DNA of 64,000 bases from Desulfomonilia bacterium. Its GTDB lineage: Bacteria; Desulfobacterota; Desulfomonilia; UBA1062. The stretch lies in NCBI GenBank assembly GCA_050014195.1, contig JBEKDT010000015.1:32001-96000 (forward strand), given 5' to 3'. The notes below the pieces were generated by a model, which ran no database searches, had not been told where the DNA came from, and saw nothing but the letters and a program-made list of their open reading frames with translations. The position numbers and the translations under genes were made by a program. Positions 2,380 through 54,657 of this stretch are shown here, piece by piece (within the stretch, counting starts at the first letter, position 1; each line of letters opens with the position of its first letter).

Positions 2380-3030
2380 TTACAGCCGCCCTTTCAGCGG
2401 GCAAGCATCGCAACGGGGCTGCCTGGTCCTGCAGTAGTCCTTGCCGATGAATACCATGTGGGCATGGAGGTCTTTGTATACGTCCAGCTTCCGGGGCAAA
2501 CCCGCCTCGAAGATGGCCCGGATCTCATCATAATCGGCATGCTCATCGACGATGTGGTGCCTGACGAGCATGCGCTTCGTGTAGGCATCCACTACGAAGA
2601 TACACTTGCCCGCGGCATAGCAGCAAATGCTGTCGGCGGTCTCCTTGCCGATGCCGCTCACTTCCAGCAGTTCCGCACGTAACACATCCGGTCCCAGAGA
2701 AAACAGCCTGTCCAGGTCCCCGGCATGGAAGGCCATAATCATGCGAACAAGGTTCTTGAGGCGAGAGGTCTTGACATTGTAGTATCCTGAAGGCTTCAGA
2801 AGCGAGGCCAGGTATGGCTCATCGGCACTATGAACAGCGGACATGTCCATGAGGCCGGCTGCCTTGAGGTTAATAATGGCCTTTTCAACATTGGTCCAGG
2901 CAGTATTCTGCGTGAGAACCGCGCCGACCATCACCTCGAAGGGGGTCTCTCCGGGCCACCATCCTGATGGGCCGTAATGATCGAACAGGATGCGGTACAG
3001 ACGGGAGGGGTTAAAACCGGATCGGCTCAA
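2380..3030 (-). CDS. HhH-GPD / endonuclease III-like DNA glycosylase with FeS motif
   Basis: WWPGETPFEVMVGAVLTQNTAW, GIGKETADSI HhH motif, VVDAYT, C-terminal CRTRQPRCDACPL. Confidence 0.9.
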   Translation of the reverse strand: MSRSGFNPSRLYRILFDHYGPSGWWPGETPFEVMVGAVLTQNTAWTNVEKAIINLKAAGLMDMSAVHSADEPYLASLLKPSGYYNVKTSRLKNLVRMIMAFHAGDLDRLFSLGPDVLRAELLEVSGIGKETADSICCYAAGKCIFVVDAYTKRMLVRHHIVDEHADYDEIRAIFEAGLPRKLDVYKDLHAHMVFIGKDYCRTRQPRCDACPLKGRL

Positions 3031-3035
3031 CGCTC

Positions 3036-3812
3036 TTAGTTTTCTCCATGCCCTTTGTGCTTGATGACGTCCTTCATCTTATCGCGGATGTCCCCGCGGA
3101 TGTTGAAGAGCATGGCGGTCATCTCCAACTCATATTCGAGCGCCGCCTTGGCATCGAGCCTGCTTACTACATCCAGGCTCCTCTTGACGGCCTTGACCAC
3201 TTCCGGCGATCTGCTCACAAGCTCTTGGGCGCAGGTCAGGACCTCTTCCCTGAAGCGCTCCGGCTCCACCACCCTGTTTACAAGACCTATTGCATGGGCC
3301 TCCTGTGCACCGATGGGATCACCTGTCAAGGCCAGATCCTTGGCCCTGGCAATACCTATGCGGGAGACCAGCGGGGTGAGCAGAGGATTGAATCCGTACT
3401 TGATCTCAGGGTGTGCGAAGATGGCGCTTTCGGATGCAATGATCATGTCTCCCATGAGCGCGAGGTTGAACCCGCCCCCAAAGGCGATGCCGCTGACAGC
3501 GGTGATGAGGATCTTGTCCTGGTCGAGCAGCAAGGAGTATACCTCTACGGCAAGCCTGAAATAATTCGCTGCCTGTTCGGTAGTAAAATGAGGCGCCTCC
3601 TTCAGGTCTATGCCTGCCGAGAAACACTCAATCCCCCCGGACAAGACGATGACCCTGATCTCGGAAGATTCATGGAGGAATTGGGAGAACACCTGATGGA
3701 TCTCCTTCATCATCCCATAAGAGAGCGCATTGAGGTCGCGCTTGCGGTCCATCTCGATAAAGGCGATCCTATCTCTTACATCTGCCTTGATGAACTGGTA
3801 CTCCATGGGCAT
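3036..3812 (-). CDS. Enoyl-CoA hydratase/isomerase family protein
   Basis: FSAGIDLKE, AFGGGFNLALMGD, FAHPEIKYG crotonase motifs. Confidence 0.9.
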   Translation of the reverse strand: MPMEYQFIKADVRDRIAFIEMDRKRDLNALSYGMMKEIHQVFSQFLHESSEIRVIVLSGGIECFSAGIDLKEAPHFTTEQAANYFRLAVEVYSLLLDQDKILITAVSGIAFGGGFNLALMGDMIIASESAIFAHPEIKYGFNPLLTPLVSRIGIARAKDLALTGDPIGAQEAHAIGLVNRVVEPERFREEVLTCAQELVSRSPEVVKAVKRSLDVVSRLDAKAALEYELEMTAMLFNIRGDIRDKMKDVIKHKGHGEN

Positions 3813-38701: not shown

Positions 38702-39565
38702 TCATGTTTCAAACGGCCCGGTCTCCTTGCGCTCGGGATAGGTGGAGCAGCCGTAAAGTTTGTTGACGGGTGTCGAGCCTTTCTTTGCAGTGTGCAGTAT
38801 CGTCGCGCTGCCGCTCCAGGGGCACGGCAGTGGTGCAGGGTTATCGCGGACAGGTGTCTGAAAGGCTGCTGGTTTGTTTTTTGGTAATGGGACGAGATCG
38901 GCCTTGCTCCGGCCGATCATTGCAAAGAGCTGTTTGCCGTTGACGAGCTTGATGGGGTTGCCTTTGGAAAAATCGATCGCCTCCTGGGTAAAGATGCCTG
39001 AGGTAATAACGATTCCTCCCGAGGCCTTCTCGTCGTAAACGACTCCGAGCAGTTCGTGGACAATGACGACGTCCACGCTCTCCATCTTCCAGTGCTTGCA
39101 CTGGACAAAGATGGTCTCGCCGTTCTTTTTCAGGACAAGGTCCACTCCCTTGTATGCCCCGCCGCCTCCGGTCTCAATGACGGTGTAGCCTCTTCTTCTG
39201 TATGCATCGCCCACGATCCGCTCGAAATCCCGCCAGCTCAGTGCCCGGAGTGTTTCCCAATTCTTCCGGCTCTTGAAAAGAACGATCCTCTTTTTGCGGA
39301 TGAAAACTGAATTCAAGAAAAAGAGGCCTGCCGTTACGAGAAAAAAGAACAAGGCCGAGTTGGCAAATGTCGGGCCTGATTGCGCCAGGCTTCTCAAAAA
39401 GATATCATGAGGAATGCCGTTGGGACTTGGTGCTGCATGGTAATTACCCCACATTGCCGGGAATGCATACTTCAATAATCCATAGCTGAGGACTGCAAGA
39501 ATAACGCTGACCCACCATAATGCCTCAATCAGGTCATCAGCAAGTGAGGTGATTTTTCTTGCCAT
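38702..39565 (-). CDS. Membrane-anchored Mrr-like restriction endonuclease with degenerate C4 Zn finger
   Basis: Two TMs, LSWRDFERIV, GVDL...FVQCKHW, ITSGIFT, LVNGKQL; CPWSG...GCSTYP. Confidence 0.85.
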   Translation of the reverse strand: MARKITSLADDLIEALWWVSVILAVLSYGLLKYAFPAMWGNYHAAPSPNGIPHDIFLRSLAQSGPTFANSALFFFLVTAGLFFLNSVFIRKKRIVLFKSRKNWETLRALSWRDFERIVGDAYRRRGYTVIETGGGGAYKGVDLVLKKNGETIFVQCKHWKMESVDVVIVHELLGVVYDEKASGGIVITSGIFTQEAIDFSKGNPIKLVNGKQLFAMIGRSKADLVPLPKNKPAAFQTPVRDNPAPLPCPWSGSATILHTAKKGSTPVNKLYGCSTYPERKETGPFET

Positions 39566-39833: not shown

Positions 39834-40004
39834 TTAGTTATTGCCGCACCGCGCCTGCATGGCAGCGATGTCTTCAGGGGCAAGCCCTTTGCAATCGGAA
39901 TTAATCCTGTAATACATGATGGAACCCGGGTTTTTGCTGTGCTCGAGACCCTGGGCATGGCCGAACTCATGGGCCAGCGTACGCACAAGCATGTTGTGGC
40001 CGCT
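39834..40004 (-). pseudogene. C-terminal catalytic half of an interrupted matrixin (M10-like) metalloprotease
   Basis: Minus frame missing from the ORF track reads SGHNMLVRTLAHEFGHAQGLEHSKNPGSIMYY...CGNN*: HExxHxxGxxH plus Met-turn. Confidence 0.88.
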
Positions 40005-40030
40005 TAAATGTTAAATCTTCTTATATACTC
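40003..40030. other. Left att junction of the integrated element (core CT 40003-40004)
   Basis: Host GGCCG-CT then element arm TAAATGTTAAATCTTCTTATAT, an inverted match to the right-end arm. Confidence 0.85.
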
Positions 40031-40198
40031 CCTTTTATAGTCACTGGCAAAATCTCTGCATCCCATAGATCATCAATATCGTAATAGTATCATAAACTTG
40101 GAACCCACTTTGACAAATTGATGTAAAATATATTTTAAGCTTTGGTGTAATGAAATTTATTTTATAATGAAGATAAAAAATATTTTGGAGGAACATCA

Positions 40199-40432
40199 AT
40201 GAATACCAAAGCCATACATCTATCTCACATAAATGTGAATTCCTGGCAGCGTTTCAAATCGTGCGCAGCTATAAAAAATATGGCTATTAACGATCTAGCG
40301 AACGTGATGATTGAGGAATTCGTGGATGATTTCGAGGAAAAACTCTTTCGAGAAGCCTATCACAAGAAGCTTGCCGACCCCACTACCGATCTCAGTAAAC
40401 CTATAACAGTCAAACTCACGAGGACGAAGTAA
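40199..40432 (+). CDS. Putative ribbon-helix-helix DNA-binding protein
   Basis: GGAGG RBS; beta-helix-helix pattern IHLSHI...WQRFKSCAAIKNMAINDLANVMIEEFV. Confidence 0.55.
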   Translation: MNTKAIHLSHINVNSWQRFKSCAAIKNMAINDLANVMIEEFVDDFEEKLFREAYHKKLADPTTDLSKPITVKLTRTK

Positions 40433-40433
40433 T

Positions 40434-40652
40434 ATGAAAAACATCAGCGAGTGTGAGAGTTTCGAGGAATGGGCAATGTCGTTCAGTGATGATGAATTCA
40501 AGGAATTCGTCGCTGACAAATTTGGTGAACTTTCGATGGATCTGCGGAATAGAGATTTTAACATTGATCTCGTCTTACCAATCGTCGAATCAATAAAACA
40601 GGCTGTTTTTATACGTTATCAGTCGAAAGATCCGACAATCACAAATCATTAA
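40434..40652 (+). CDS. Hypothetical acidic protein
   Basis: Starts 1 nt after the previous stop; 72 aa. Confidence 0.5.
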   Translation: MKNISECESFEEWAMSFSDDEFKEFVADKFGELSMDLRNRDFNIDLVLPIVESIKQAVFIRYQSKDPTITNH

Positions 40653-40876
40653 AAACACAATGAACATCCCAGGCCTGTATAAACCCCTATGTTTGTCAAA
40701 TAAACATCACCTGGGACATCTCAGGAAGGAAAGCACTCATTGTAGAAAGGAACCGCATTCTTGCGGATTCTATAGAACAGGTGGGATAGGGTCGCTCCCG
40801 ACAAGAACGGTAAACTCCTTGGACCGTTCTTCCCACTTTTTATCATTCCATGGAGAACATGCACCGAGGAGGCATA

Positions 40877-41458
40877 ATGGAACGGGTTTCACGACGAATC
40901 TATCATAATGACCCTAAATTCAAGCCCAAGACTATCAAAGGTAAGACCAGATGGCAGCATGACAATAGCAAATGGCCCCTCAATTTCGGGTGGATGGAGA
41001 AGGACAAAAGTATCTGGCGCAGACTCAATAATCCCAAGGATCGGAGTTTCCATCACATGATTACAATCCTACAACACTTATGGGAGAAAAGGCTGGATCT
41101 GTTCGAGAGTAAATTTATTGCTGAACGTATAAACGCTGGTTTGTACAATACGCATAAATACGATGATGAGGGAAAGGAACGGAGATGGCCCTTTGTGATG
41201 TGTGCTCCACTTGATTATGATTATTTAGAAGCCCGAGACCTGGATCAAAGAAAGATCAGCTATTGTCTCAATGCACTCGTGAAGTGTGGCTTCTTACGAA
41301 GTTTCCGTCGGATAGGTCGCAATGGTCCAGTGAACTATGCAATCGGCTATTACATAGTGACATCACACGCTCCTTATGGCCGTGCATATCCTTTTTTGAA
41401 GAGTAACCCAGCGTGTCAAAAAGCACTGATTAATTTCAAATTCAGGGAGAAGATGTAG
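40877..41458 (+). CDS. Basic hypothetical protein, candidate replication/wHTH protein
   Basis: GAGGAGG RBS; ISYCLNALVKCGFL...NYAIG resembles a winged-helix end; followed by repeats. Confidence 0.5.
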   Translation: MERVSRRIYHNDPKFKPKTIKGKTRWQHDNSKWPLNFGWMEKDKSIWRRLNNPKDRSFHHMITILQHLWEKRLDLFESKFIAERINAGLYNTHKYDDEGKERRWPFVMCAPLDYDYLEARDLDQRKISYCLNALVKCGFLRSFRRIGRNGPVNYAIGYYIVTSHAPYGRAYPFLKSNPACQKALINFKFREKM

Positions 41459-41469
41459 TGATTTTGAAA

Positions 41470-41530
41470 TGTAAAAAGATCTACCCATGGTTTGTAAAAA
41501 GATCTAGCCATGGGGCATGGATAGATCTTT
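41470..41530. repeat. Iteron-like repeats (candidate ori or pac site)
   Basis: TGTAAAAAGATCTASCCATGG twice (41470, 41493) plus inverted CATGGATAGATCTTT (41516-41530), followed by AT-rich DNA. Confidence 0.7.
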
Positions 41531-42251
41531 ATCATATTTGATGGTTGGTTGATTAATGTTGAATAACAATATGTTACACGATAAATTGAAAAAATCAATT
41601 GTGGCACATATTATACCTATTTTTAGGTATCCCTTATATAGTACCAATAGGTTCTTCTTCACTTCGTTCAGAAGAACATTGAGCAAACTTCGTTTGCTCT
41701 ATCTCCCTCTTCTCTTTTTCAATGGAAGGAATGGAAAGACTATCCCATTCAGATTGAAAGAGTTTGTTTTTCCCCATTAGGGGAATTTTAGTCGGGAGCC
41801 TAAGTTTTGGAGGCTCCATATGAAATTGAAGGTTTCAAAGGTTGCCAGAGTGTTTCTCAGTATCCATTTGGCAAGTGACCTATTCGGGTCCAGTGCCAGG
41901 GGATTTCCCATCTACCAAGAAGCACATGATTCATTGAAGATCAATCCAAGTACCCTCGCCACTGTAAGATGGGTGGATGATCGGGAGCTACTTACATCAC
42001 TCAAATATTGGAGGCGTGATGGGTATGTGTATGGGTTGTTGCTGAACCGATTGGTTACGGGAGACCTCCCATGTGCTGGGTATGAAGGCAGTCGGGAGCC
42101 ATATGGTGATTTTTGAGGATTAATCCGGGCTTACCAAGTCTAAAGTCTTAAGTTATACTTTAGACTTTGGCACAAGAAGGCATAAAAAACGAGGAATAAA
42201 CTAATCATTTGAAATGTAATAAATAAATACAACGGGTTATGAGGTAATTGA

Positions 42252-44063
42252 ATGACACTTACACGAACCAGATTCCCAATCAAAGAGGATAAAGCACCAG
42301 ACATCGACCCTACCATTGACCCTGAAACTGACATCGATCAGGAACATAAAACCAACATACCCACTACCAAACAGAGAGGGTTCCCTAAAGGATCTCCAAG
42401 GCCTCCGAGGATAGCCGAGCGCTGGCAGGAGAACACGGAAGAAGCCTTCTATGCCTGGTTGGAAGATGTCAAGCCCATGATCCTTACACGATCAGGTAGG
42501 TATGAGGTCTTCCGACCCACACCTGAGCAGAAGACAATCATCAAGGCCGTCTTCACACAAGAAAATGGAAAGCTTAAGCACTCCATGATCCTGTCCATTC
42601 AGCCTCGTAGACACGGCAAGAGTACAGTCTTTGCAATCATAGCACTCTTCTTTTTCTGTTCCAGGAAGAACTACACCATTTCTTTGCTAGGTAATAACGA
42701 TACGCACACCGATAGGACAATGCTCAGGAAGCTCAAGTCCATCATCCAGCATACCGGAGGCTTAAGAATTCGGATAGACCCCGACAGGGACATCCTTCAT
42801 GACTGTATACGCCAGGAAACCTGGGGAAACCAAATAATCAAGCAAGGCGTTTCAAGTGCATCCGCATTCGGAGAGCGTATAAATCTGCTATGGGTATCGG
42901 ACCTCCATGCAGCCCCTGACATCTCGATATTCAACGCAGTCCAGGCCTCACTCTTAGACTCGGAAGATTCCCTGATCCTCATAGACAGCAATGCAGATTC
43001 CATAGGCGGTCCCGTTCATGGCTTGGAAGAAGAAGCCATGTCCGACCCTTCAATATTTTGCAGACACCTGGAATACAAGGATTTTGAAGAGTTTACAGAG
43101 AAAGCCCCTGCATGGATTGACCGATCCAGAGCCAAGCGCATACAAAGAACAGCCTTGGAAGCAGACTACCAGCGCGACATCCTCGGCAAACGCTCATCAG
43201 TAGCCAATGCTCTCTTCCCCGAAATCCTTATCAGGGCAGCTATGGACAGCTATAAAATCCCCGTTCTTGACATCAAAGACCTCGCCCATGGCAGACCCTA
43301 CAAGGTCGGTGCTGGTTTAGACCGAGCAAAGCTGTTGTCTCCGATAATGGGAGGAGATCACAGCGTCCTGACGACCGTTGCCAAGGTCGCCCAGACATCA
43401 GGTGAGCCCGAATATTTCATCCTCGACATGCACGATTTTACCTTGAACCTCAGCAAGGCAATAAAGGCCAGGATCATAGAGAATCACAAGAGATACACCC
43501 TCACCAATGTTGTCTTAGAATCATTCGAGACAGTAGACCTTCTCCCATATCTGGCAGAAATGCAAATTTCCCATGAGTCAATCCATGCAACAGACGTCGC
43601 ACAGAACACGATATTCCCTGAGTTCTACCGCATAGTGAAGGACGGTAGGCTCCATATCCCGGCAAACTGCACCCAGCTTGCCGATGAAATGCGCTCATTC
43701 ATTTATACCGCAAAGAAACATGGACAATACAGCTTTGGGCATTCATCAAGCCAGTTCCATGACGATGCCGTGTACGCCACTGCATGGGCGATCTTCTCTC
43801 TCAGGAATGAGATTCTTAGCATGTATCAGCTTGATCTACTCGATTGTCAGAATCAATCCTCGCTCAAACGGGCTCTATGTTTCTTATTTGGTGGTTCAAA
43901 AGTCATGCACTGCTCTGAAGGCTGTGCTGCATTCCATTCAGTCCAGGACATGCACCAAGACTTCCTGGCATTCAATCAGTTGGACAGCGAGCTTAACTTG
44001 GTTGAGTTTTTCAAGGCATACGTCCAGACCAAAGACACCATCAAACAATATCAGGTGCTGTAA
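42252..44063 (+). CDS. Phage terminase large subunit-like protein
   Basis: PTPEQ Q-motif, QPRRHGKST Walker A, GAGLD...DHS nuclease aspartates, HDDAVYA; located upstream of portal. Confidence 0.8.
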   Translation: MTLTRTRFPIKEDKAPDIDPTIDPETDIDQEHKTNIPTTKQRGFPKGSPRPPRIAERWQENTEEAFYAWLEDVKPMILTRSGRYEVFRPTPEQKTIIKAVFTQENGKLKHSMILSIQPRRHGKSTVFAIIALFFFCSRKNYTISLLGNNDTHTDRTMLRKLKSIIQHTGGLRIRIDPDRDILHDCIRQETWGNQIIKQGVSSASAFGERINLLWVSDLHAAPDISIFNAVQASLLDSEDSLILIDSNADSIGGPVHGLEEEAMSDPSIFCRHLEYKDFEEFTEKAPAWIDRSRAKRIQRTALEADYQRDILGKRSSVANALFPEILIRAAMDSYKIPVLDIKDLAHGRPYKVGAGLDRAKLLSPIMGGDHSVLTTVAKVAQTSGEPEYFILDMHDFTLNLSKAIKARIIENHKRYTLTNVVLESFETVDLLPYLAEMQISHESIHATDVAQNTIFPEFYRIVKDGRLHIPANCTQLADEMRSFIYTAKKHGQYSFGHSSSQFHDDAVYATAWAIFSLRNEILSMYQLDLLDCQNQSSLKRALCFLFGGSKVMHCSEGCAAFHSVQDMHQDFLAFNQLDSELNLVEFFKAYVQTKDTIKQYQVL

Positions 44064-44269
44064 TGTACGAGAAGACAGAAGATTTATGGCTCCCATTAAT
44101 AGGAGATGGTCAGATAGAATTTAGATGTGCAGCCTGCCGGAGATATTTTGGGAGAGGTTTATTCCCACCAGGATCTTTCCTGCTTCATAAATGTGGGAAG
44201 TGTGACCGGATAAACAGGCTTGGAGCCCATGGCGCTTCATTGGCATCACTCGGGGTAATAAAAAAATAA
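44063..44269 (+). CDS. Mu Com-like zinc-finger protein
   Basis: EFRCAAC...HKCGKCDRIN, matching Com RCxxC...KCxxCxxxN spacing. Confidence 0.6.
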   Translation: MYEKTEDLWLPLIGDGQIEFRCAACRRYFGRGLFPPGSFLLHKCGKCDRINRLGAHGASLASLGVIKK

Positions 44270-44284
44270 GGAAGGTAACAAGTA

Positions 44285-44485
44285 ATGGCAACAGGAACAG
44301 TAAAATGGTTCAACAGAGAAAAAGGGTATGGGTTTATCACAGTAGACGGTGGAAGTGATGTCTTTGTGCATTGGAAAAACATCTTAGGAGATGGGTTCAA
44401 GATGCTGGTTGAAGGCGATTCCGTAAGATTCGACATCGAGGAAGGCCCGAAGGGAGATCAGGCAGTTAACGTGAGGGAAGAATAA
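44285..44485 (+). CDS. Cold-shock protein (CspA family)
   Basis: [15 protein letters not shown] (RNP1), DVFVH (RNP2). Confidence 0.95.
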
Positions 44486-45003
44486 TGATCAAGCAAAATG
44501 GCAAATGGACGAGGATTCCACCCGAGCTTGAGCGGGCTTTTTACGCCCACCATGAGGCCGGTCATGTGGTGATGCATTACCTCAAAAAAGTGAGATTTGC
44601 TTATGTGACTATCAATGGAACCATGTCTGAACGTCCAGATGTTAAATCTTTCGTCTGCGTTAATCCAATATCCTTTGAGAAAAGGAAAAAGGTACTGGAA
44701 AGGGAATTTCTTCTTGATATGGCCGGGACAATTGCCGAAAAAATTTATCTCAAGTCCAAAGGCTATGAGGTGTGTCCCGGGTATACAAAAAGTGACTTGC
44801 GGTTAATCATGAACAAGGCTGAAAAGTATTTTGGGATTACAGAACCAGATGTAATTGACAAAAAACTAAAAGAACTTGAGCCCGAGTGCAAAAATCTCAT
44901 TGAACAGAACTGTAAAGCTATTACAGCCATTGTGGAAGCCCTACTGAAAGAAGAGACGATAGGATACAAAAAGGCCAGAGAGATCATCAAAAGAATAAAA
45001 TAA
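44485..45003 (+). CDS. Stand-alone peptidase M41 (FtsH C-terminal)-like protein
   Basis: AHHEAGHVV, MAGTIAE, SDL, AIVEALLKEETI. Confidence 0.7.
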   Translation: MIKQNGKWTRIPPELERAFYAHHEAGHVVMHYLKKVRFAYVTINGTMSERPDVKSFVCVNPISFEKRKKVLEREFLLDMAGTIAEKIYLKSKGYEVCPGYTKSDLRLIMNKAEKYFGITEPDVIDKKLKELEPECKNLIEQNCKAITAIVEALLKEETIGYKKAREIIKRIK

Positions 45004-45135
45004 GTTTTCGTCTTGTTATAGAAAAAAACTATAATAACATATATCACGAAAAGCCCCCTTTTCATGCATAGAGCCCCATGGAGGCCAGCCGACGGCCAAA
45101 CCATTGGGGCTCTTTTGCTTTTAGGAGGTTAGTGA

Positions 45136-46482
45136 ATGTTTTGGAACAGCGTTGTTGACGATGTAGCATTTCGAACATGGGGATTCAGTGCGACTGACCC
45201 CGTCTTGATGCGGAAGCAGGAACACCTCCGCAGGATTGAGTATTACCACGACTTACAGTTAGATTTCCTGCGGATGCAGCTTACCCGACATTTCGCAGAT
45301 GCAAGCAAGATCACGCCGATGTTTATCAATGTGACCCGAAAAGTCATAAACAACATTGCCAGGGTTTACATTTATCCGGTCACGAGGCAGATCGTCAAAG
45401 GCTCAACAACCGACACCGAACTTTTCCAAGCAATTGCCCTCACATCGTCTCTTGGAAGAAAACTCAAGCTGGCAAGTCGATATTGCAAGCTCCTTAAAAC
45501 CCTTCTGCTCAGGCCAATATGGCGTGATGGTCACATGGACTTGGACCTGATAACGGGTGACAAAACCGATGTCACTTATGGTGATGTTCCGGAGCAGTTA
45601 CTATCGGTCAAAATAACGATCTATCCTGACTCAGGAAAGCTCGAAGACCTAACATATAGCCTTTGGACTGCCCAAGAGTTCCAGACGCTTGACTACAGAA
45701 ATAAAGTGATTGCAAGCCAGCCAAATCCTTACGGCGTTTTGCCATTCGTCCCGATCTGGGATGGTGTTCCAGTTCGAGATTTTTGGATCGATGGCGGTGA
45801 CGATCTGATCACAGCCCAGGATGCCGTTAACGAGAGGTTGACCGATTTATGCTATGTTTTACGCCTTCAAGGATACGGTCAGCCTTATACAATCGGTGTA
45901 CCACAAAGCACCGACTTTTATTTGGGACCAGGTGCAGTAACCCAACTGCCACAGGGATGTAGCATGGGCTTTGCCTCAACTAACGCCCCAATCAGCGCGA
46001 TCATCGAAGCAATAAAATTTCTCATAGGTCAGACAGCTGTCTCGTATGGCCTGTCCGCGCATATTCTAATTGACGAACCGGAACGATCTTCCGGAATTAG
46101 CAAGATAATTTCTAGCCAGGAGCTAGATGAAGCCCGGCAGGACGAGGTCGAGCTTTTCATGGATTACGAGCATAACTTATTCAATATGTTCAAGGTTCTA
46201 TGGAACCATCACAATCCTGGTAAACAGTTTTCCAAGAATGCAGAATTAAAAGTATCATTTGAAGATCCTAAACCAGAAGTTGATCCTCTGGTCCAAGCGA
46301 ACGCATGGACTGCATTGATGGGCATGGGCGTCATATCGCCTGTGGACATCGTCATGGCTCGCAATCCTGACATAACGAGTAGACAAGATGCCCTCGCATA
46401 TTTGCTGACTGTAGAATCCGAGATGAGAACCCTCAATGAGGGATATCCCATAACCCCAAATCCAGGAAGGACGGTACCCTAA
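45136..46482 (+). CDS. Phage portal protein (SPP1 gp6-like)
   Basis: AGGAGG RBS; EYYHD, INVTRKVIN, NPYGVLPFVP, DLITAQDAVNERLTD, SSG; 448 aa. Confidence 0.78.
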   Translation: MFWNSVVDDVAFRTWGFSATDPVLMRKQEHLRRIEYYHDLQLDFLRMQLTRHFADASKITPMFINVTRKVINNIARVYIYPVTRQIVKGSTTDTELFQAIALTSSLGRKLKLASRYCKLLKTLLLRPIWRDGHMDLDLITGDKTDVTYGDVPEQLLSVKITIYPDSGKLEDLTYSLWTAQEFQTLDYRNKVIASQPNPYGVLPFVPIWDGVPVRDFWIDGGDDLITAQDAVNERLTDLCYVLRLQGYGQPYTIGVPQSTDFYLGPGAVTQLPQGCSMGFASTNAPISAIIEAIKFLIGQTAVSYGLSAHILIDEPERSSGISKIISSQELDEARQDEVELFMDYEHNLFNMFKVLWNHHNPGKQFSKNAELKVSFEDPKPEVDPLVQANAWTALMGMGVISPVDIVMARNPDITSRQDALAYLLTVESEMRTLNEGYPITPNPGRTVP

Positions 46483-46877
46483 TGGAAAAAGAAGCAATCG
46501 TCAACGCAGACGGAAAAAGCGATGAAACAAAGGAAAAAGCCCAGGCCCAGGGCACGGACAATGCCACCGAAAAAGGCAGCAAGATGATTCCCAAGGAACG
46601 ATTCGATCAGGTCAACCAGCAGAAAAAAGAGGCTCTTGAAGCCCTGCAATCCATTGTTGATGAACTCATCGAGGACATCCCGGAAGAGTTTAAAGACCTC
46701 GTCCCTGACCTATCACCAGCAGTTAAAATAATGTGGATCAGGAACGCGCAGAAAAAGGGAATCTTTGGGAAGACATCTCCTGATGGGCTAGACACAAAGA
46801 GATCCGGGAATACGGCCCCCAGAAATCTTGAAGGTCTTAGTACACACGATTTAAGGAAACTTGGTTACAAAAACTAA
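46482..46877 (+). CDS. Capsid scaffolding protein-like
   Basis: MIPKERFDQVN motif plus coiled coil, between portal and capsid genes. Confidence 0.7.
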   Translation: MEKEAIVNADGKSDETKEKAQAQGTDNATEKGSKMIPKERFDQVNQQKKEALEALQSIVDELIEDIPEEFKDLVPDLSPAVKIMWIRNAQKKGIFGKTSPDGLDTKRSGNTAPRNLEGLSTHDLRKLGYKN

Positions 46878-46956
46878 AAAATAAATCCATTGTCTCAACA
46901 TAGTTAGAGGCCATTGAAGAGCCCTTGTTTCTGACGTGGAAACAGGAGGAAAATCA

Positions 46957-47877
46957 ATGGCTTTAACATTGTTAGATCAAGCTAAACTTTGCGTTGATCC
47001 GCTTCAAAAAGGCATTATCGAAGAGTACCCGCGAACTTCTGAGGTGCTTCAACGACTACCCTTTATGTCAGTTTCAAGTGATACTTACAGATACAACAGG
47101 GAAGAAATTTTGCCAGGTGTCGGTTTTCGAGGCGTGAACGAGAGCTATAATGAAAGCACTGGCATACTCAATCCCCAGATCGAGACACTCATGATCTCAG
47201 GTGGGTTTAGCGATGTTGACCGTGCTCTAATTAAAACACAGGGAAATGTAAACGATCTTCGGGCAATTTATGACGGACTAAAGGCCAAGGCATTAAGCCT
47301 GTTCTGGACTAAAGAATTCTTTAAGGGTGACACTACAGTCAACCCACGAGGATTCGATGGTCTTGAAAAACGTCTGACTGGTCCGCAGCTCCTCGATATG
47401 GGCTCAAGTGCAGGTGGTGACACCTTGACCCTTGCCATGCTCGACGAGCTGATCGACTGCTGCCCATGGGGTGTTGATTGTTTGTTTATGAACAGGACCA
47501 TGAGGAGAAAGGTCAATGCCTTGATTCGTGCTTCCGGTGCAGCAATCGAGACGGTCTCTGATGCCTTCGGTCAACAGATACCTTCATATGCATCCATACC
47601 AATCGGGATAATTTGGATCGATGAAAAAGGTAATGAAATCCTTGATTTCAATGAACCTGCGCCTGGTGATGGTGCTACTGTTACCACCTCAATTTATGCA
47701 GTTAAATTTGGTGCAGGGCAGTACGTTTCAGGATTGCAGGTCAGTCCTATAGAAGTGCTCGATCTCGGCTTGTACGCTGGCGGTATCAAGTTCAGAACGC
47801 TGATCGAGTGGATCAGTGGCATGGCTGTCTTTAACTCAAGGGCAGCAGCGCGTCTACGTGGAATTAAAAACGCATAA
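46957..47877 (+). CDS. Major capsid protein
   Basis: GGAGG RBS; LPF...YRYNRE..LPGVGFRGVNESY, FDGLEKRL, LDELID, AAARLRGI; 306 aa after scaffold. Confidence 0.82.
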   Translation: MALTLLDQAKLCVDPLQKGIIEEYPRTSEVLQRLPFMSVSSDTYRYNREEILPGVGFRGVNESYNESTGILNPQIETLMISGGFSDVDRALIKTQGNVNDLRAIYDGLKAKALSLFWTKEFFKGDTTVNPRGFDGLEKRLTGPQLLDMGSSAGGDTLTLAMLDELIDCCPWGVDCLFMNRTMRRKVNALIRASGAAIETVSDAFGQQIPSYASIPIGIIWIDEKGNEILDFNEPAPGDGATVTTSIYAVKFGAGQYVSGLQVSPIEVLDLGLYAGGIKFRTLIEWISGMAVFNSRAAARLRGIKNA

Positions 47878-47999
47878 TAGTGTCTCACTCCCAGGAGTGA
47901 GTGTTTTACCCGACCGGTCTGCCACTCAGACCTGTGTCATATTCTTAAATGGGGAGCAAGGATCGGCCTTGCTCCCCAGCCTCCAAGAAAGGATGAAGC

Positions 48000-48191
48000 A
48001 TGGAACGTAAAAGAGGTAGGCCCAAGAAAAGTATAAAACTGATGGAAAATAGGGTTGGGTTCTTCATTGAGATTTACAAGGATCTTCATCAGCAACTTAA
48101 GACTGAGTCCGACAGGCAAGGTGTGCCCATGTGCAAGTTTGTAGAAATAGCAATCAAAGAATTACTTAAGTCATGTACAATGACATCTTAA
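48000..48191 (+). CDS. Small RHH-like protein with RGRP AT-hook-like motif
   Basis: RKRGRPKK...FIEIYKDLHQQLKTESDRQGVPMCKFVEIAIKELL. Confidence 0.6.
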   Translation: MERKRGRPKKSIKLMENRVGFFIEIYKDLHQQLKTESDRQGVPMCKFVEIAIKELLKSCTMTS

Positions 48192-49180
48192 AATTCCAGC
48201 ATCGTGTAGATCAACGAAGCAATGCTCTTGCCTCGGATATGATCCGAGAGCTTGATGCTGCAAGGGTTGAAATCCTTGGAAAACTGGCTGATCTGCAAGA
48301 TCGTTACATTCGAGGCGACTACAACACCGAGACATTTCAACGTAAACAGGCTTTCTTACTGCATCAGAGGAACGAGGTTGAAGATACCCTTGATAGTGTT
48401 TTCAGCAATATTGGAGATCAACTCCAATCAGCCTCAGAAGACGTTATCGCAGCGACAACCGTACACACGATCAGTACAATGAACAATAGCACTGGCCTTG
48501 ACATCCAGTTCTTCCACTTGGACCCTGAACTTGTCCAGGCATGGTTCCAGACCGGCCTTATCGAAGGCTCGACCCTCACAGACTGGCTCAATAAGCTAAA
48601 ACAGTCCACAGCCGACAGAATAATTAAGGCACAAAGACAATCCCTCATTCAGGGCGAGAGTGTGGGGGGAATGGTCAAACGATTACGCCAGGAGGGCGTT
48701 GAGGGAAGTTATCGAGACCTCACTGGCCTTGCCCGAACCAGTATGCTTTCGGCTGCAAACTATGCTCGTGAACAAACCGTTACTCAGGGCTTCGGGGATG
48801 TGCTCACGGGCTGGCAATATTGCGCCACGCTAGATTCGAGGACGTGTTTGGTGTGTGGGGATTTGGATGGAACCACATATGGCCCTACAGATCAAAAAGA
48901 AGATTTACCCTTACATTGGTGCTGCCGATGTTGCTACATTCCACTAGTAGGTGGTGAGGGTGCTAACACTGATGATCGTCCAGCCGTTACAGATGAAAGA
49001 GTTGAGAGGTTTGACGGCACATACAACGAGTGGATGCAATCGCAATTAGAATCCGACCCCGGCTTCGTCAAGGATGTTTTAGGCCCTGGAAGGTTTGATT
49101 TATTCAAAGATGGGAAAATAAGCCTTTCAAATATGGTTACAAATGGCGAAATAACAACCCTTGCAGACCTCAAAGGATAG
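48173..49180 (+). CDS. Phage head morphogenesis / minor capsid protein (SPP1 gp7, Mu F-like)
   Basis: LARTS, ATLDSRTCLVCGDLDG, PLHWCCRC, VLGPGRFDLFKDG. Confidence 0.85.
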   Translation: MYNDILKFQHRVDQRSNALASDMIRELDAARVEILGKLADLQDRYIRGDYNTETFQRKQAFLLHQRNEVEDTLDSVFSNIGDQLQSASEDVIAATTVHTISTMNNSTGLDIQFFHLDPELVQAWFQTGLIEGSTLTDWLNKLKQSTADRIIKAQRQSLIQGESVGGMVKRLRQEGVEGSYRDLTGLARTSMLSAANYAREQTVTQGFGDVLTGWQYCATLDSRTCLVCGDLDGTTYGPTDQKEDLPLHWCCRCCYIPLVGGEGANTDDRPAVTDERVERFDGTYNEWMQSQLESDPGFVKDVLGPGRFDLFKDGKISLSNMVTNGEITTLADLKG

Positions 49181-49206
49181 GGGTTTTCAGAGGTCGGGGC
49201 TAACCT

Positions 49207-49434
49207 TTATCCTTCTATAGCCACTAAAACCGCTCCATTAACATATGAAGCATAGCGATGATTTAAGTAAGTTACAATTTCATTATCCCATTTTAACTCA
49301 TCCCCTTGATTATCTCTTGGCTTCCTATCTTTTATAGTCACCTCCATTGAACTATATACTCCAAACTGAACGCTAAAACCTTTGGCCTTCCCGTCTCTCA
49401 TCGTTCCACTAATCATTATAAACTTATATTCCAT
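49207..49434 (-). CDS. Hypothetical protein
   Basis: ORF overlapping the upstream minus-strand gene; GGAG RBS before MEYKF. Confidence 0.5.
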   Translation of the reverse strand: MEYKFIMISGTMRDGKAKGFSVQFGVYSSMEVTIKDRKPRDNQGDELKWDNEIVTYLNHRYASYVNGAVLVAIEG

Positions 49435-49714
49435 TGCTTGACTCTCCTTTTTCTGGCTCCCCATATAGGGATACCCAGACTGCTCTTTTCATTTCTTTGG
49501 TTATGTATTTACCAACTATCGTTCTACAATCTTCAGCAAGTGCAATAAGCTCCTTTTTTGCTTTCTTTATGCGTTTGTCGGTCCAATTAGGGGTAACATC
49601 TAGAAGGTCACACCATTCAATATGACTGAGCATGTCATCCAAAACACATAACTGGGTTAACAATTCGCCAATGTCTATACTGCCTGCAACCTTACCATTT
49701 TTTAACTTACCCAT
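49424..49714 (-). CDS. Hypothetical protein
   Basis: GAGGTG RBS; 96 aa. Confidence 0.55.
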   Translation of the reverse strand: MGKLKNGKVAGSIDIGELLTQLCVLDDMLSHIEWCDLLDVTPNWTDKRIKKAKKELIALAEDCRTIVGKYITKEMKRAVWVSLYGEPEKGESSNGI

Positions 49715-49947
49715 TTTTCACCTCTCTCGTTCATCATGCTTACATTATATCATATTTTCAGATGAAACACGGTTTTCGGATAGGGTTTCAACAGGTCAGG
49801 GCAAAACCTTATCTCCTATATCTTTCTTTAATAATACAATCAATTTATATCTTTCACGAAATGTGAAAGATAGTCTTGTTTTTTAAATAAATAAAAATTA
49901 TTATGAATATATCTTGTTATATCAAAAGCCTATGAAAGGAGAGAATT

Positions 49948-50301
49948 ATGGTTGCAAAAAAGGGACAAGTTAAGAAGTCAGGCAATGGCGATACCATTGA
50001 AAAGATCAATCGCAAACCAGTCCAGAAAAAGGCGGCTATCAAGGACGATCAAACAGCAGCCCCCAAAGAAATCAAAACAGATGTTTTCGGTAACAGAGTC
50101 AATACCCAGTCCAGCCTGATCAATGAACTCCTCCTGAAAGGCACGAAGAAGGACGTCATTGTCAAGGCTATCATGGACAAGTTCAACAGTCCTGAGAAGA
50201 CGGCTACCGGCAAACTTCGGGGGCACATCAAACACCTCAAGAAAGAAGGACATTCTGTAACCGAGAAGGATGACACCTATACCATAAAGATAAAAGGCTA
50301 G
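49948..50301 (+). CDS. Lys-rich small protein, possible wHTH nucleic-acid binder
   Basis: AAGGAG RBS; basic composition; GKLRGHIKHLKKEGHSV...YTI. Confidence 0.6.
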   Translation: MVAKKGQVKKSGNGDTIEKINRKPVQKKAAIKDDQTAAPKEIKTDVFGNRVNTQSSLINELLLKGTKKDVIVKAIMDKFNSPEKTATGKLRGHIKHLKKEGHSVTEKDDTYTIKIKG

Positions 50302-50309
50302 GGGGCGAT

Positions 50310-50504
50310 ATGGATCTGATTGAACGTCAGGCAAAAGCGGATCAAGTCAAAAACAGGGTGTTCAGTATTCTTACTGTGGCCTTAGCTCAGGTCAGGAATA
50401 CAGTTGAGGAGTCCGGTCTTGAGATGAGAGACTGTGGCATCAGTGTTGAGCGATACCAGGCCGGAGATCATTCAATATTCGTCGATCTCAGGATGAAGAT
50501 ATAA
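50310..50504 (+). CDS. Hypothetical protein
   Basis: Follows the previous gene; terminator downstream. Confidence 0.55.
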   Translation: MDLIERQAKADQVKNRVFSILTVALAQVRNTVEESGLEMRDCGISVERYQAGDHSIFVDLRMKI

Positions 50505-50537
50505 AAATATAACCCGCACCTACGAAAGACCTCCCTT

Positions 50538-50566
50538 GGCCCCGGTGCAATGCCGGGGCCTTTTTT
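50538..50566 (+). terminator. Rho-independent terminator
   Basis: GGCCCCGG-TGCAATG-CCGGGGCC followed by TTTTTT. Confidence 0.85.
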
Positions 50567-50618
50567 ATGCCCCTCGATGAATTTGGGGAGTCCTTTTAAG
50601 GCCCCGCCGCAACTGTGT

Positions 50619-50849
50619 CTAATCCTTCAATGGAATCCAGGCCCAACGGTGAAAGCCTTCTCTAAGCTTATATTTATAACAATCACCATTCGAATAAGTT
50701 GATGTCAGGATTCCTTGATCAGCATTGTAATCCCAGGTAAAAATATCACCGTATGTTCCTCGGACCTGACACTTAAAACTTTTCTTTAAATCTATACTCA
50801 AAAAATCCAACTCGTCCTCGTCCCAAATTTCCTTATCTCCCAGATCCAT
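50619..50849 (-). CDS. Hypothetical protein
   Basis: AGGAG RBS before MDLGDKE. Confidence 0.5.
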   Translation of the reverse strand: MDLGDKEIWDEDELDFLSIDLKKSFKCQVRGTYGDIFTWDYNADQGILTSTYSNGDCYKYKLREGFHRWAWIPLKD

Positions 50850-51026
50850 TGTGATTCTCCTATAAATTTTTATTCGACGAATAAACAATCGTACAGACTA
50901 TCGTAGCACACTTTTTTCAAAACCTTGTTCAGTCTGGAAAAATAGTTTTTATGAGTAATTATCTTGTTTTATTTATATATTTATTTTATGATATTCTTAA
51001 AATAAATAAGGCAGGAGGGCCAAGTT

Positions 51027-51269
51027 ATGGCGGAAAAATTGAGGGCTTTTACCCTTTACATCGAAGATATAAAGCTCCGTAAGATGAAGGCGATAGCAGC
51101 CTACAAGGATAAAAAGACAAGGGAAATTGTCAACGAGATGTTCGATCTCTACCTGGCAAAGTTCGCTGAAACTGAGCAAGGCAAGCAGCTTATGGCATCC
51201 TTTGAAGAAGAACACAAAGGGGAAATCAAACTTACTCGCCTGAAGAAACCGGAATCACAAAAACCATGA
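51027..51269 (+). CDS. Putative ribbon-helix-helix regulator upstream of the recombinases
   Basis: GGAGG RBS; FTLYIED...KMKAIAA...TREIVNEMFDLYL. Confidence 0.6.
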   Translation: MAEKLRAFTLYIEDIKLRKMKAIAAYKDKKTREIVNEMFDLYLAKFAETEQGKQLMASFEEEHKGEIKLTRLKKPESQKP

Positions 51270-51286
51270 TATAATAAGGGGGAAAT

Positions 51287-51994
51287 ATGGCTGATGTGTA
51301 CATGGTCACTAGAACATCGACAAATCACCAGGACCTTTCCATTGAGGCCCAGGATGCAGCCCTGAGAAAATGGGCTATGAATCATGGGCACATTGTGAAG
51401 GGTATTTCCACAGAGGACGGGGTGAGTGGTGGACGGGACATTAAGAAGCGTCATATTATGAAGATCCTCAACAAGATGGGCAAAGGTGACATCCTGGCTA
51501 CGTATTCATGGAGTAGGCTGACGAGAAGCCTTTCAGACCTGATGGAAATTGCCAAGATCCTGGAAAAGAAGGGGTCACATTTGGTGAGTCTCGTAGAGCA
51601 GATTGATACGAGCACCCCACAGGGCAGACTCTTCTATCACATCATGGGGTCTATGCATCAGTTTGAAAGAGAGCTGATTGCTCAGCGAGTTAGGTTTGGA
51701 CTGGACCACAAACGGTCAAAATCTGAGAAGTTGGGTGGCATGATTCCATTCGGCTATGATGTGAAGGTGGTTCCCGGTATGAATCGCAAGGGTGAGCCGA
51801 CCAAGATCAAGAAGCTGGTCCCAAACGAGAAAGAGCATTTTATCATAGAGAAGATACTTACATTGCGACGGGAGTCATGCACTTTGAAGAATATTGCCAA
51901 TACACTGAATGCCGAGGGCATCCCGACCAAGAATGGCAGTGTATGGCTTTCGGGCCAGATAAATAGGATAGTTCGACGGGAGGCAAGGGCATGA
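51287..51994 (+). CDS. Serine recombinase (resolvase domain plus short DNA-binding recombinase domain)
   Basis: RTSTNHQ..SIEAQ catalytic motif, SRLTRS, IDTSTPQGRL, FERELI, PFGY, IANTLNAEGIPT. Confidence 0.92.
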   Translation: MADVYMVTRTSTNHQDLSIEAQDAALRKWAMNHGHIVKGISTEDGVSGGRDIKKRHIMKILNKMGKGDILATYSWSRLTRSLSDLMEIAKILEKKGSHLVSLVEQIDTSTPQGRLFYHIMGSMHQFERELIAQRVRFGLDHKRSKSEKLGGMIPFGYDVKVVPGMNRKGEPTKIKKLVPNEKEHFIIEKILTLRRESCTLKNIANTLNAEGIPTKNGSVWLSGQINRIVRREARA

Positions 51995-53610
51995 CTACGG
52001 ATGGATTGAAACCACCTCTACGTTTTGGGGTGCTGTGCCGTGTTAGCACCGAACCTCAGGAAAAGCGTGGGGAATCCCTGAACAATCAAAAGAAGCAGGT
52101 CGAGTCTGCCGTGAAATATCTTGGTGGGATAATTACCATGCGATATGAGGGGCAAGAGCATAGTACACCAGGATCTGAACGAGAGATGCTTGACAGGGCT
52201 CTCGTAGATTCTGGCAAAGGTCTCTTCGATGCATTTATGGTCCCTGATCTCACAAGATGGACCAGGGACAATGAAAAGAATAAGCAGAGTATCAGAATTT
52301 TTAGGATGAACAAGATACGCTTTTTTGTAGGAACGATGGAGTTCAATTTAAACAAGTCTCATGATCGAATGATGATTGGAATGACGACAGAGGTCGGAGA
52401 AGGCACCGCTGGCTATATGGCAGAGAGGAGCAAGGAATGTCGTCATGATCTATTTAGTAAAGGAGTGCCATGTGTCGGTCAGAAACCCTATGGACGAAAG
52501 TATGACAAGAAGACAGGCACATGGAGTATCGACGAAGAAAAGAAGGAAATGATTAAGATAGCAGTCAAGAAGTTTCTATCAAAGATAGGCCGTGAGAAAA
52601 TAGGCCGTGAGAAAATTGCAGAGGAAATGGGAATTTCTCCAAGCACATTGTATATCATCTTCAAAAAATTCCTTGGTGATACATGGACCACTAAAATGGG
52701 GACAATGAAAATCCCTCCCCTGATTGAGGATCAGAAAATCATTAAAGCAGTCCATGAGAGACTTGAAAACAACAAGACCATCAACCATGATCCACGTGGG
52801 AAACATGCATATCTGTTATCCAGCATCATATTTTGCGCTGATTGCGGACTCACCCTGAATGGCGTTCCCGATCAGATGAACTATGGAAAGACTGAGGCCC
52901 AATATAAATATAGGTACAGACACCCAAAGAACAAAAGCATCAAGCGTTTTTGCCCAAATTATAAAGCATGGGACATCAGGGCAGAGGACATAGAAGAAGC
53001 TGTGATAATCCAAATGCTATATCTTTTTGGACATAGAGAAGCATTAGAGAAGTCCATATTAAGAACTGTCCCCAATAATGAAAAATTGCAAGAACTGTCT
53101 GCCACCAAGGCAAGGTATAATAAGGAGTTCGATAATATTGAAAAAGAAATACAGACCCTCATTGAAAAAACCGTCAAAGGAATATTTACGGATGAAGAAG
53201 CAAGACCCACTATGGAAAAATATCGTGAACGCAAGAGATTCCTCAAACTAGAGATGGATAATCTCGATACTCAGATTGGACAATCACCAACCAAAAAAGA
53301 GCTTAGTGCACTTGCCAAAAGAGTTCACCAACAGGCTTGGAAGGCACTTTATCAAAATCCTGCAAAAATGACATGGACTCAGAAACGGGAACTTTTGTTA
53401 AAGGTATTTTTAGGGAAGCATGTCTCTGGCGATAAACCAGGTATCTATGTCAAAAAAGTTGATGATGTCGTGCATTATTCTATCAAAGGACTAATCAATC
53501 AGGAGATTGAGGGGTGTCTTCCAATGAGCGATTGGGAGAGGGAAGAATTGCTAGATAATCCTATAAAAGCAAAAGGGAATAATATAACAAGTAAATTTAA
53601 CAATTACTGA
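51991..53610 (+). CDS. Large serine recombinase (integrase)
   Basis: CRVSTEPQ..SL..Q, DLTRWTR, KPYG, PPLI, YLLSSIIFCADCG Zn ribbon, coiled coil; the stop codon straddles the att junction. Confidence 0.92.
   Translation: MTTDGLKPPLRFGVLCRVSTEPQEKRGESLNNQKKQVESAVKYLGGIITMRYEGQEHSTPGSEREMLDRALVDSGKGLFDAFMVPDLTRWTRDNEKNKQSIRIFRMNKIRFFVGTMEFNLNKSHDRMMIGMTTEVGEGTAGYMAERSKECRHDLFSKGVPCVGQKPYGRKYDKKTGTWSIDEEKKEMIKIAVKKFLSKIGREKIGREKIAEEMGISPSTLYIIFKKFLGDTWTTKMGTMKIPPLIEDQKIIKAVHERLENNKTINHDPRGKHAYLLSSIIFCADCGLTLNGVPDQMNYGKTEAQYKYRYRHPKNKSIKRFCPNYKAWDIRAEDIEEAVIIQMLYLFGHREALEKSILRTVPNNEKLQELSATKARYNKEFDNIEKEIQTLIEKTVKGIFTDEEARPTMEKYRERKRFLKLEMDNLDTQIGQSPTKKELSALAKRVHQQAWKALYQNPAKMTWTQKRELLLKVFLGKHVSGDKPGIYVKKVDDVVHYSIKGLINQEIEGCLPMSDWEREELLDNPIKAKGNNITSKFNNY
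53582..53610. other. Right att junction (core CT 53607-53608)
   Basis: Element arm ATATAACAAGTAAATTTAACAATTA-CT then host GAATTG. Confidence 0.85.
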
Positions 53611-54364
53611 ATTGAAAAATGGTTATGCTTTCCCTGAACATGGTCCTCTCATACAGACCGGAAGCGAACTTCCCGGTCAGTTCGTTGCATGTGTTTTTGT
53701 AGCTCATCACCTGCGAATTGTGGTTTGATGCTATGGAACCGATGTCTGCAACAATACCGTTCAGGTCGTCCACCGTCTTCTGCAGGTCCGCTTGTTGGGC
53801 CTGGAGGCCTTCCAACTCGGCATCGAGGGACTGCTTCTGCCCGGAAAGACTTTGAAAGGTTCCCCTGGAGACGGTGTCATCCTTATTCGCTGCATCAAGC
53901 TCAGCCCTGTAGGCATTCAGGTGCCTCATGTATGCATCATATTGCGCTGAATAGGCGGCATTCTTCCGCTCCACCTCGGCTTTAAGATCATTGTACAGGG
54001 ACATGAGCTCATCATACGATGCCTTTGCATCGTCTATGCCTCTGCTGATGTTTTTCAGATTGTCCGTTACTGCCTGCCGGTTGTCATACACCAGGTCTAT
54101 CTCGATGGAGCCGGCCGGGTCTTCCTGGAAGATCTTGTGCCCGATGGCCTTCTCCCACATGGCGACCGCCTCATGAACGGCATCCGTAACCTCCTGCCTG
54201 CTCAATCCGAAGCGCTCATCGATGGAGTTGATGCGGTAGGTCATGATCGTGTTGAATGCCTCTGATCTGCCCTGGAAGATGCAGACAAAGAGGATACAGA
54301 TGATGATTTGTGGCAGATACCTGATGGGGCTTAAGGGGTGGCTCGTGTATGCATTTTTCATCAT
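53609..54364 (-). pseudogene. N-terminal part of the interrupted secreted matrixin-like metalloprotease
   Basis: Signal peptide, YRINSIDERFGLS, AMWEKAIG, LVYDNRQ, coiled coil, GLY...ITIFQF; joins 39834-40004 in frame. Confidence 0.85.
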
Positions 54365-54415
54365 GGTGGTACAGATATTTTTCGGGTGATATTCTAAAAA
54401 GCTTAACAGGCTACT

Positions 54416-54657
54416 TGTTCTCACCACGAAGGACTTAGCGCAGCATAGCCGCAACCAAAATGAGCTTGGGATTTGAGCAGACATAGAAGTCCTTCACCAC
54501 GAAGAGCACTTTAGGACACGAAGAAAGGAAACCTTTTGAAATAGTGGAACGGTTCAAAGAACCCACGATTGTCTGTTATGCATTTCTTAGATCATCTTCG
54601 TGCTCTTCGTGTCCTTCGTGGTGAAATTTCCCTGTGTGTGCTCTTCAACGATCCGGG
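54416..54657. repeat. Dispersed MITE/REP-like repeat, copy 3
   Basis: Same flanks as copy 2, but the interior is reverse-complemented between CACCACGAAG and CTTCGTGGTG. Confidence 0.85.

Follow-up and report, generated by a model that had tools for sequence, protein, structure and literature searches.

A large serine integrase with attP inside its own reading frame, and a conserved C-terminal tail that integration would sever, in a phage-like island of a peat-bog Desulfomonilia bacterium

A stretch of 64,000 nucleotides (nt) from a peat-bog Desulfomonilia bacterium (assembly GCA_050014195.1, contig JBEKDT010000015.1, positions 32,001 to 96,000 of the forward strand; the whole stretch is called the window here) carries a small, phage-like genomic island whose integrase, a large serine recombinase (LSR), has the phage attachment site, attP, within its own reading frame. 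The state of the DNA is thereby shown to set which of two predicted products the gene encodes, one of 539 amino acids (aa) in the integrated island and another of 565 aa in the excised circle. The 26 residues at stake form a tail with a short motif that recurs in related integrases. On balance, the evidence leans towards a state-dependent, two-form integrase with a functional tail.

The features that define the island and the host gene that it interrupts are as follows.

40005..53606, no strand: island body, 13,604 bp with one copy of the core counted (G+C drop, contig joint, PHROGs, Pfam)
40003..40004, + strand: CT crossover dinucleotide at attL (orthologue alignment, contig joint)
53607..53608, + strand: CT crossover dinucleotide at attR (orthologue alignment, contig joint)
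53609..53610, + strand: host-derived GA that completes the TGA stop (identical bases in the attB of the intact orthologue, ..CT GA..)
39834..40002, - strand: C-terminal part of the split host gene (stop-to-stop open reading frame (ORF) with an HExxHxxGxxH zinc-protease motif, colinear with the intact orthologue in genome L003)
53609..54484, - strand: N-terminal part of the split host gene (ORF for a secreted coiled-coil, metalloprotease-like protein)

Borders and core are fixed by an intact orthologue of the split host gene together with a metagenome contig that skips the island. The orthologue, uninterrupted in a genome of the same genus (L003), matches the left flank as far as CT and, starting at CT, the right flank in a three-way DNA alignment, in which CT is the sole identity between the attL and attR junctions; the rejoined host frame is colinear with it and equal in length. 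In one run of a public peat metagenome (X22), a 58-nt contig at a depth of 9.8 joins 40002 to 53607, skipping 13,604 bases with a 2-base ambiguity, and the inserted form is present in the same run as a 13,662-nt contig at a depth of 31. The island is therefore 13,604 bp long and inserts at a CT dinucleotide, and its empty site exists in nature. The G+C content drops from about 0.50 outside to 0.34-0.51 across approximately 40000 to 53500, and two IMG/VR contigs (L088 and L089) include this provirus in its integrated state, next to identical host sequence. Peat and wetland metagenome runs that contain the island number at least 24.

The interrupted host product has a signal peptide, a coiled coil and a zinc-metalloprotease motif at its end, and orthologues of its gene occur in 13 of 31 related genomes. 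The island separates the protein from its catalytic end, and excision would restore the gene. A paralogue of the host gene is found elsewhere in the genome (G000:C17).

Within the island, the integrase gene abuts the right border, and the remainder of its frame lies at the left end.

51991..53610, + strand: large serine recombinase (integrase), prophage form, 539 aa plus TGA (ORF list, Pfam, PHROG, AlphaFold2)
40004..40084, + strand: severed tail of the integrase (26 codons and a TAA), which continues the integrase frame in the circular form alone
53587..53606, + strand: P arm of attP, 20 nt, which codes for the terminal residues of the integrase (complementarity to the P' arm)
40005..40024, + strand: P' arm of attP, 20 nt, the left end of the island
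40025..40048, + strand: conserved tail block ILPFIVTG (block aligned in 12 elements, codon table)

In the prophage form, the protein ends ...SKFNNY before TGA at 53608-53610, with the C of CT as the third base of the Tyr539 codon and the T as the first base of the stop. An earlier note on this DNA had claimed that integration creates the stop codon, and this is borne out by the 539-aa ORF ending in a TGA whose GA is host-derived according to the intact orthologue. The same note had taken T 53608 as the core; that base does belong to the core, but the core is the dinucleotide CT and not T alone. In the circle, the frame from 40004 translates as LNVKSSYILPFIVTGKISASHRSSIS and stops at TAA (40082-40084), so that translation and reconstruction reproduce the 26-aa extension which the note had proposed.

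The modelled attP is an imperfect 42-bp palindrome centred on CT. Its arms are symmetric around that dinucleotide at 16 of 20 positions, the next best centre reaching 10, and a symmetry of 16 was attained by none of 2000 shuffles (maximum 15); the modelled attB has a symmetry of just 10/20 at CT. In the structural model of the LI integrase, the distal half-site motif of attP is placed roughly 5 bp farther from the core than that of attB. An offset scan of the distal half-site motifs of attP against attB gave 180 matches out of 616 at +5, with 175 at -2 and 174 at +8.

The same layout was found throughout the relatives of the integrase, all of which are distant. The closest of these is 42% identical, and 21 proteins matched at E <= 1e-10. 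Related loci number 76 in species-representative genomes of Desulfobacterota, Planctomycetota, Bacteroidales and others, and 284 relatives were counted in metagenome contigs, 80 of which were kept. Among 118 distinct integrase 3' regions, 71 adjoin a yjbQ/UPF0047 gene (27 on the same strand and 44 on the opposite strand), and 22 were too short to assign; for most of the clade, the integrase ORF thus extends to the target gene or enters it. A recurrent ending of the homologues, ..CHAHY....YQ, was considered as a peptide motif and rejected, because it is a stretch of the host's yjbQ translated out of frame, with the remainder of that gene downstream.

Both ends were recovered for ten yjbQ-inserted elements, 6-10 kb long. 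In all ten, the crossover lies at the AA of an Asn codon in the yjbQ stretch LVN|AMH and falls within the integrase frame. The P arm resembles the P' arm in each of the 11 integrated elements, the window included. Two integrase sub-groups (L092-L104) use the same yjbQ AA in opposite orientations, such that the integrase strand reads AA or TT. Symmetry alone located the junction for the window and six relatives, and the L102 junction was shifted by one dinucleotide by requiring an intact host frame. In the integrated state, 0-11 host-encoded residues follow the crossover codon before a stop is met, which comes directly after that codon in 3 of the 11 (the window, L094 and L103/4).

A further metagenome contig, L160, has an intact palindrome (14/20, the distal 7-mers being perfect inverted copies) within a single uninterrupted ORF that also carries the tail motif, and its layout is that of a natural un-integrated copy; it alone, among 128 complete integrase ORFs, shows the block contiguously in a regular-expression search. 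Palindromes inside the ORF also occur in L158 (17/20) and L120 (14/20), but the tails of these match the block loosely and they were not counted as natural attP forms. Whether homologous integrases also overlap attP had been raised in the earlier note, and they do so in 11 of 11 further elements (the ten with both ends and L160). As reconstructed here, attP within the integrase frame is the rule in this LSR clade, which mostly targets yjbQ/UPF0047.

Nine of the yjbQ-inserting relatives carry a full-length yjbQ of their own, either adjoining the integrase or at the far end, and this copy may replace the host gene that the element splits. The copies are located as follows.

L090, 3567-3983
L093, 2216-2635
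L096, 8540-8953
L097, 8243-8659
L098, 9513-9926
L099, 2068-2484
L101, 6707-7120
L102, 6506-6919
L103, 344-757

In L093 (Desulfosarcina widdelii), an ORF upstream of the element's yjbQ (2766-3488, - strand) has an end that, on a look at the sequence, resembles a tyrosine-recombinase C-terminus.

The most telling property of the integrase tail is its conservation. Circular-form frames of the 12 elements continue for 18 to more than 55 codons past the crossover codon, and MAFFT aligns one block across all twelve.

Window: ILPFIVTG
L092: PIPFILNG
L093: PLPFELTG
L094: QLPFSLAA
L095: GIGYRITG
L096: SLHFTLSG
L097: SYHFTLSG
L098: NLIYTIES
L100: VIPFKIKG
L102: PLPLLLSG
L103/4: AYHFTLSG
L160: IIPFKLNG

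The motif can be written h-[P/H]-[F/L]-x-[L/I/V]-x-G, and its strict form, [PH][FL]x[LIV]xG, is found in 9 of the 12 elements. It is kept across integrases that are just 30-40% identical, it lies inside the tail at 8-14 residues after the crossover, and the extreme C-termini beyond it are not conserved. The integrase frame stays open for at least 18 codons in 12/12 elements. Since control frames are open through 25 codons in 6 of 24 cases, an open extension of 26 codons is unremarkable by itself; what is remarkable is its conservation. The earlier note had asked for conservation of the extension in homologs, and had named its absence as part of what would refute the proposal; such conservation is found, at the level of the peptide.

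Several features of the DNA argue that selection acts on the tail as a peptide rather than as DNA. The codons of the block vary synonymously, with all four Gly codons, CCT and CCC for Pro, and TTT and TTC for Phe. Core and block are 20 nt apart in six elements; the others have spacings of 9, 23, 24, 24, 29 and 30 nt, and within each phase group the spacing differs by multiples of 3, keeping the frame. For the pair L097 and L103, the ratio of nonsynonymous to synonymous differences (pN/pS) stands at 0.30 when computed in the integrase frame, compared with 0.75 and 0.89 in the remaining frames; for L096 against L097, the integrase frame is the only one with pN lower than pS.

The enzyme itself shows the features by which an LSR is recognised, namely a catalytic domain, a recombinase domain with zinc ribbon and coiled coil, a crossover at a central dinucleotide shared by an otherwise dissimilar attB and attP, and an attP inverted repeat. 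It matches the Pfam families Resolvase (PF00239, 1.9e-11) and Zn_ribbon_recom (PF13408, 1.2e-06) as well as the integrases of PHROG 95 (4.1e-41), and its catalytic columns R17, S19 and T20, within an RVSTE motif, are invariant among 74 aligned sequences. The AlphaFold2 model of the window integrase has a predicted local distance difference test score (pLDDT) of 86.5; it is folded to about residue 522, with long helices at 363-454 between the zinc-ribbon strands, and residues 525-539 fall below a pLDDT of 50. The model of the L160 homologue (pLDDT 85.6) has its last strand ending at 496, the crossover codon at residue 504 and a pLDDT below 50 over residues 499-536. The best Foldseek matches of this latter model were full-length serine integrases, with 9dxd_A at E 3.7e-17 and others in entries titled phiC31, Bxb1 and 4kis, in the range of E 1e-17 to 1e-11. 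Because the cut lies in the disordered C-terminal part, integration is predicted to remove no folded domain and to leave the catalytic, recombinase, zinc-ribbon and coiled-coil domains untouched. A 15-nt tandem duplication also occurs in the integrase gene (52589-52625), giving the repeat KIGRE-KIGRE in the region of the recombinase domain.

These observations can be assembled into a mechanism. In the free circle, the gene would encode 565 aa with a disordered C-terminal tail bearing the conserved motif. Once attP has recombined with attB, the last 26 codons lie 13.6 kb from the rest of the gene, at the opposite border of the island, and the prophage gene stops at a TGA made of the core T and two host bases, yielding 539 aa. 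The tail is very probably a functional peptide kept by selection, with the full-length enzyme acting when the element is free, that is, upon entry and after excision. Of its candidate roles, modulation of the integrase reaction is the one favoured here; more tentatively, loss of the tail might lower or re-specify the activity of the integrase and so help to make the insertion stable, as has been reported for the IntP and IntX forms of Mx8. Excision would still need induction and probably a recombination directionality factor (RDF).

A different use of the same tail would be a one-gene switch of directionality, in which the 565-aa form integrates and the 539-aa form recombines attL with attR, no separate RDF being needed. 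On this view the tail would occupy the region on which RDFs act, near the base of the zinc ribbon and coiled coil, and its conservation and state-specificity would both suit such a role. The RDF of phiC31 has been described as contacting acidic residues at the extreme C-terminus of its integrase, making that end part of the RDF contact surface (10.1101/2025.05.02.651858), and a C-terminal RDF fusion has been reported to set directionality and to be enough to reverse it (PMC5737554). The island has no RDF recognisable by Pfam or PHROGs, which also fits. To our knowledge, however, RDFs share no common family and no family model, and at least 12 island ORFs lack an assigned function, any of which could be the RDF. 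Moreover, the tail is predicted to be disordered and undocked, and a prophage enzyme constitutively competent for excision would need tight repression, so this switch seems unlikely. It is similarly improbable that the whole clade encodes directionality in DNA topology, with the circle-only motif as a peptide that docks either on a host factor or on the zinc-ribbon/coiled-coil base of the same enzyme, and the tail-less form excising without an RDF. Alternatively, the tail could be a degron or a stabiliser that gives the integrase different half-lives in the free and inserted states. Integration is known to remove C-terminal tags from repressors, and -AA tags from integrases, in Mycobacterium abscessus prophages (PMC8092301, PMC9934374), and a disordered tail, as modelled here, would be in keeping with such a function. 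None of the 12 tails ends in an ssrA-like -AA, which makes an ssrA-type degron less likely, and the internal position of the block, ahead of unconserved extreme C-termini, also speaks against control of stability, which is judged quite unlikely.

The tail might also be a by-product of compaction, with attP happening to overlap the 3' end of a gene and the extra residues being tolerated without a role. The cut does fall in a disordered region past the last folded element, the integrated forms do tolerate arbitrary host-encoded tails of 0-11 residues, and an open run of 26 codons is not rare. Nonetheless, a roleless tail would hardly keep one motif among such divergent integrases, nor would it be expected to combine synonymous variation, a low pN/pS confined to the integrase frame and a frame open in every element; this account is considered very unlikely. 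More improbable again is conservation at the DNA level, whereby the stretch 20-45 nt past the crossover would be an outer site of attP bound by the integrase or by a regulator. That stretch adjoins the P' arm, and part of it recurs in inverted form on the P side in the window; against this, its distance from the core varies in frame-keeping steps, third codon positions are free to differ and pN/pS is not low in either of the other frames. Another idea came from the resemblance of the block, read as x-[L/I]-x-F-x-[L/I/V], to QLxLxL, described as a hexameric clamp-binding motif (PMC4564189), but complex predictions of the genome's own DnaN with the tail scored 0.13 and 0.24 against a mark of 0.32 and count neither for nor against binding to the beta-clamp.

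Several points weigh against a state-dependent integrase with a functional tail. The motif is matched nearly or in degenerate form by L094 and L095, and weakly or not at all by L098; kinship among several of the 12 elements (L096, L097 and L103/4) means that 9/12 overstates their independence, and the pN/pS values rest on 18-27 codons. An inverted AGGGAAAA-like stretch is common to the outer arm regions of the window attP and overlaps the codons of the motif, which leaves some room for a DNA-level constraint in the window element alone. AlphaFold2 gives the tail no structure and no docking. As to the junctions, the palindrome search missed those of L092, L093 and L096, which were placed by rejoining the host gene, and L103/L104 is an assumed pairing of two contigs. 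The empty site in X22 may belong to an island-free strain rather than reflect excision, two cases that contigs cannot discriminate, and the flank depths in that run (29.5 and 35.7) do not equal the sum of 31 and 9.8. Finally, no circle (attP) joint was found in runs X22, X13, X12 and X5, which were searched as contigs, a form in which rare molecules drop out.

The remainder of the island is phage-like. According to PHROGs and Pfam, it consists of a head-only phage module and two serine recombinases, with genes for a large terminase, a major head protein, a Mu-F-like head-morphogenesis protein, an Arc-like repressor and a cold-shock protein; a probable portal and a scaffold-like protein were also noted in the head module (40005-53606). 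No tail or lysis genes were recognised among the island proteins by Pfam or PHROGs, and at least 12 small ORFs had no family match. In its gene content, the island resembles a capsid-forming phage satellite more than a complete prophage. The second recombinase gene lies directly ahead of the integrase gene, its stop overlapping the integrase start (ATGA).

51287..51994, + strand: small serine recombinase, 235 aa (ORF list; Pfam Resolvase, 8.5e-34, plus a partial Recombinase domain)

This protein could possibly serve as a resolvase, a partner or a directionality factor, each being a candidate role. As an obligatory partner of the integrase it was dropped, being present in the window and in only 6 of the 15 related loci searched (L090, L092, L094, L095, L097 and L105); it was not found in the L093 element. 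Outside the island, a gene for an Mrr-type restriction endonuclease (PF04471, 4.3e-29; 38702-39565, - strand) lies immediately to the left of the split host gene. At the left end, a promoter-like site (40089-40116, - strand; TTGTCA, 16 nt, TATGAT; 10/12 matching positions) is directed out of the island into the 3' fragment of the host gene, and a scan of this end for promoters and terminators found 1 promoter-like site against 2.1 expected by chance, which is not above chance.

Serine integrases are valued because one protein and two short sites suffice for a one-way reaction, and how that reaction may be reversed or tuned is an active question. A clade in which the integrase gene is cut by its own reaction, with removal of a conserved peptide, would provide a natural experiment in the state-dependent control of LSRs. 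There is also a practical side, in that catalogues of LSRs mined from integrated elements, such as that of a comparative-genomics pipeline (PMC10083194), would record the wrong C-terminus for such enzymes, either truncated or read off host DNA, and enzymes synthesised from those records could be without a conserved part. Conversely, the stop codon of the integrase marks the border of such islands to within a few codons.

Among known systems, the earlier note had named the repressor of BPs and the SSV1 integrase as analogies. Both are apt as principles, and the closest published parallel is the IntP/IntX pair of Mx8, where attP lies within the int coding sequence and integration gives the gene a new 3' end, with the enzyme remaining active with changed properties (PMC6070905). 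The island integrase shares that arrangement, but the Int of Mx8 is a tyrosine recombinase, whereas the island enzyme is an LSR with a 2-bp core; the layout is Mx8-like without membership of the family. The island enzyme differs further in what it loses, a short and disordered tail bearing a conserved motif, and in having its new stop built at the junction itself. In integration-dependent immunity (the BPs type and clusters of M. abscessus prophages), attP likewise lies in a gene and integration shortens the product by 20-35 residues, in some cases by way of a stop made by the first bacterial base (PMC8092301, PMC9934374). There, however, the gene encodes a repressor, the integrase is of the tyrosine type and an ssrA-like -AA tag is lost; in the island it is the integrase itself that is shortened, and its tails and those of its relatives lack such a tag. 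The "suicidal" integrases of the archaeal SSV type also have the recombination site within the integrase ORF (PMC7253208), but these tyrosine recombinases are split into two inactive pseudogenes, whereas the island enzyme loses 26 disordered residues and retains its domains in one piece.

The serine integrases of phiC31, Bxb1, Listeria A118/LI and SPbeta (SprA) resemble the island enzyme in fold and in the order of their domains; they too cross over at 2 bp, have a palindromic attP of about 40-50 bp and insert into protein-coding genes, and in these systems directionality is set by a separate RDF. In the openly accessible literature, subscription-only papers lying outside the search, no serine integrase was found described with an ORF that spans attP; the principle was found in print only for tyrosine integrases (Mx8 and the archaeal SSV type) and for mycobacteriophage repressors. 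To these systems, the present case adds protein-coding targets, a stop codon built at the junction, borders backed by a metagenome, a tail motif with codon-level evidence and a natural un-integrated copy.

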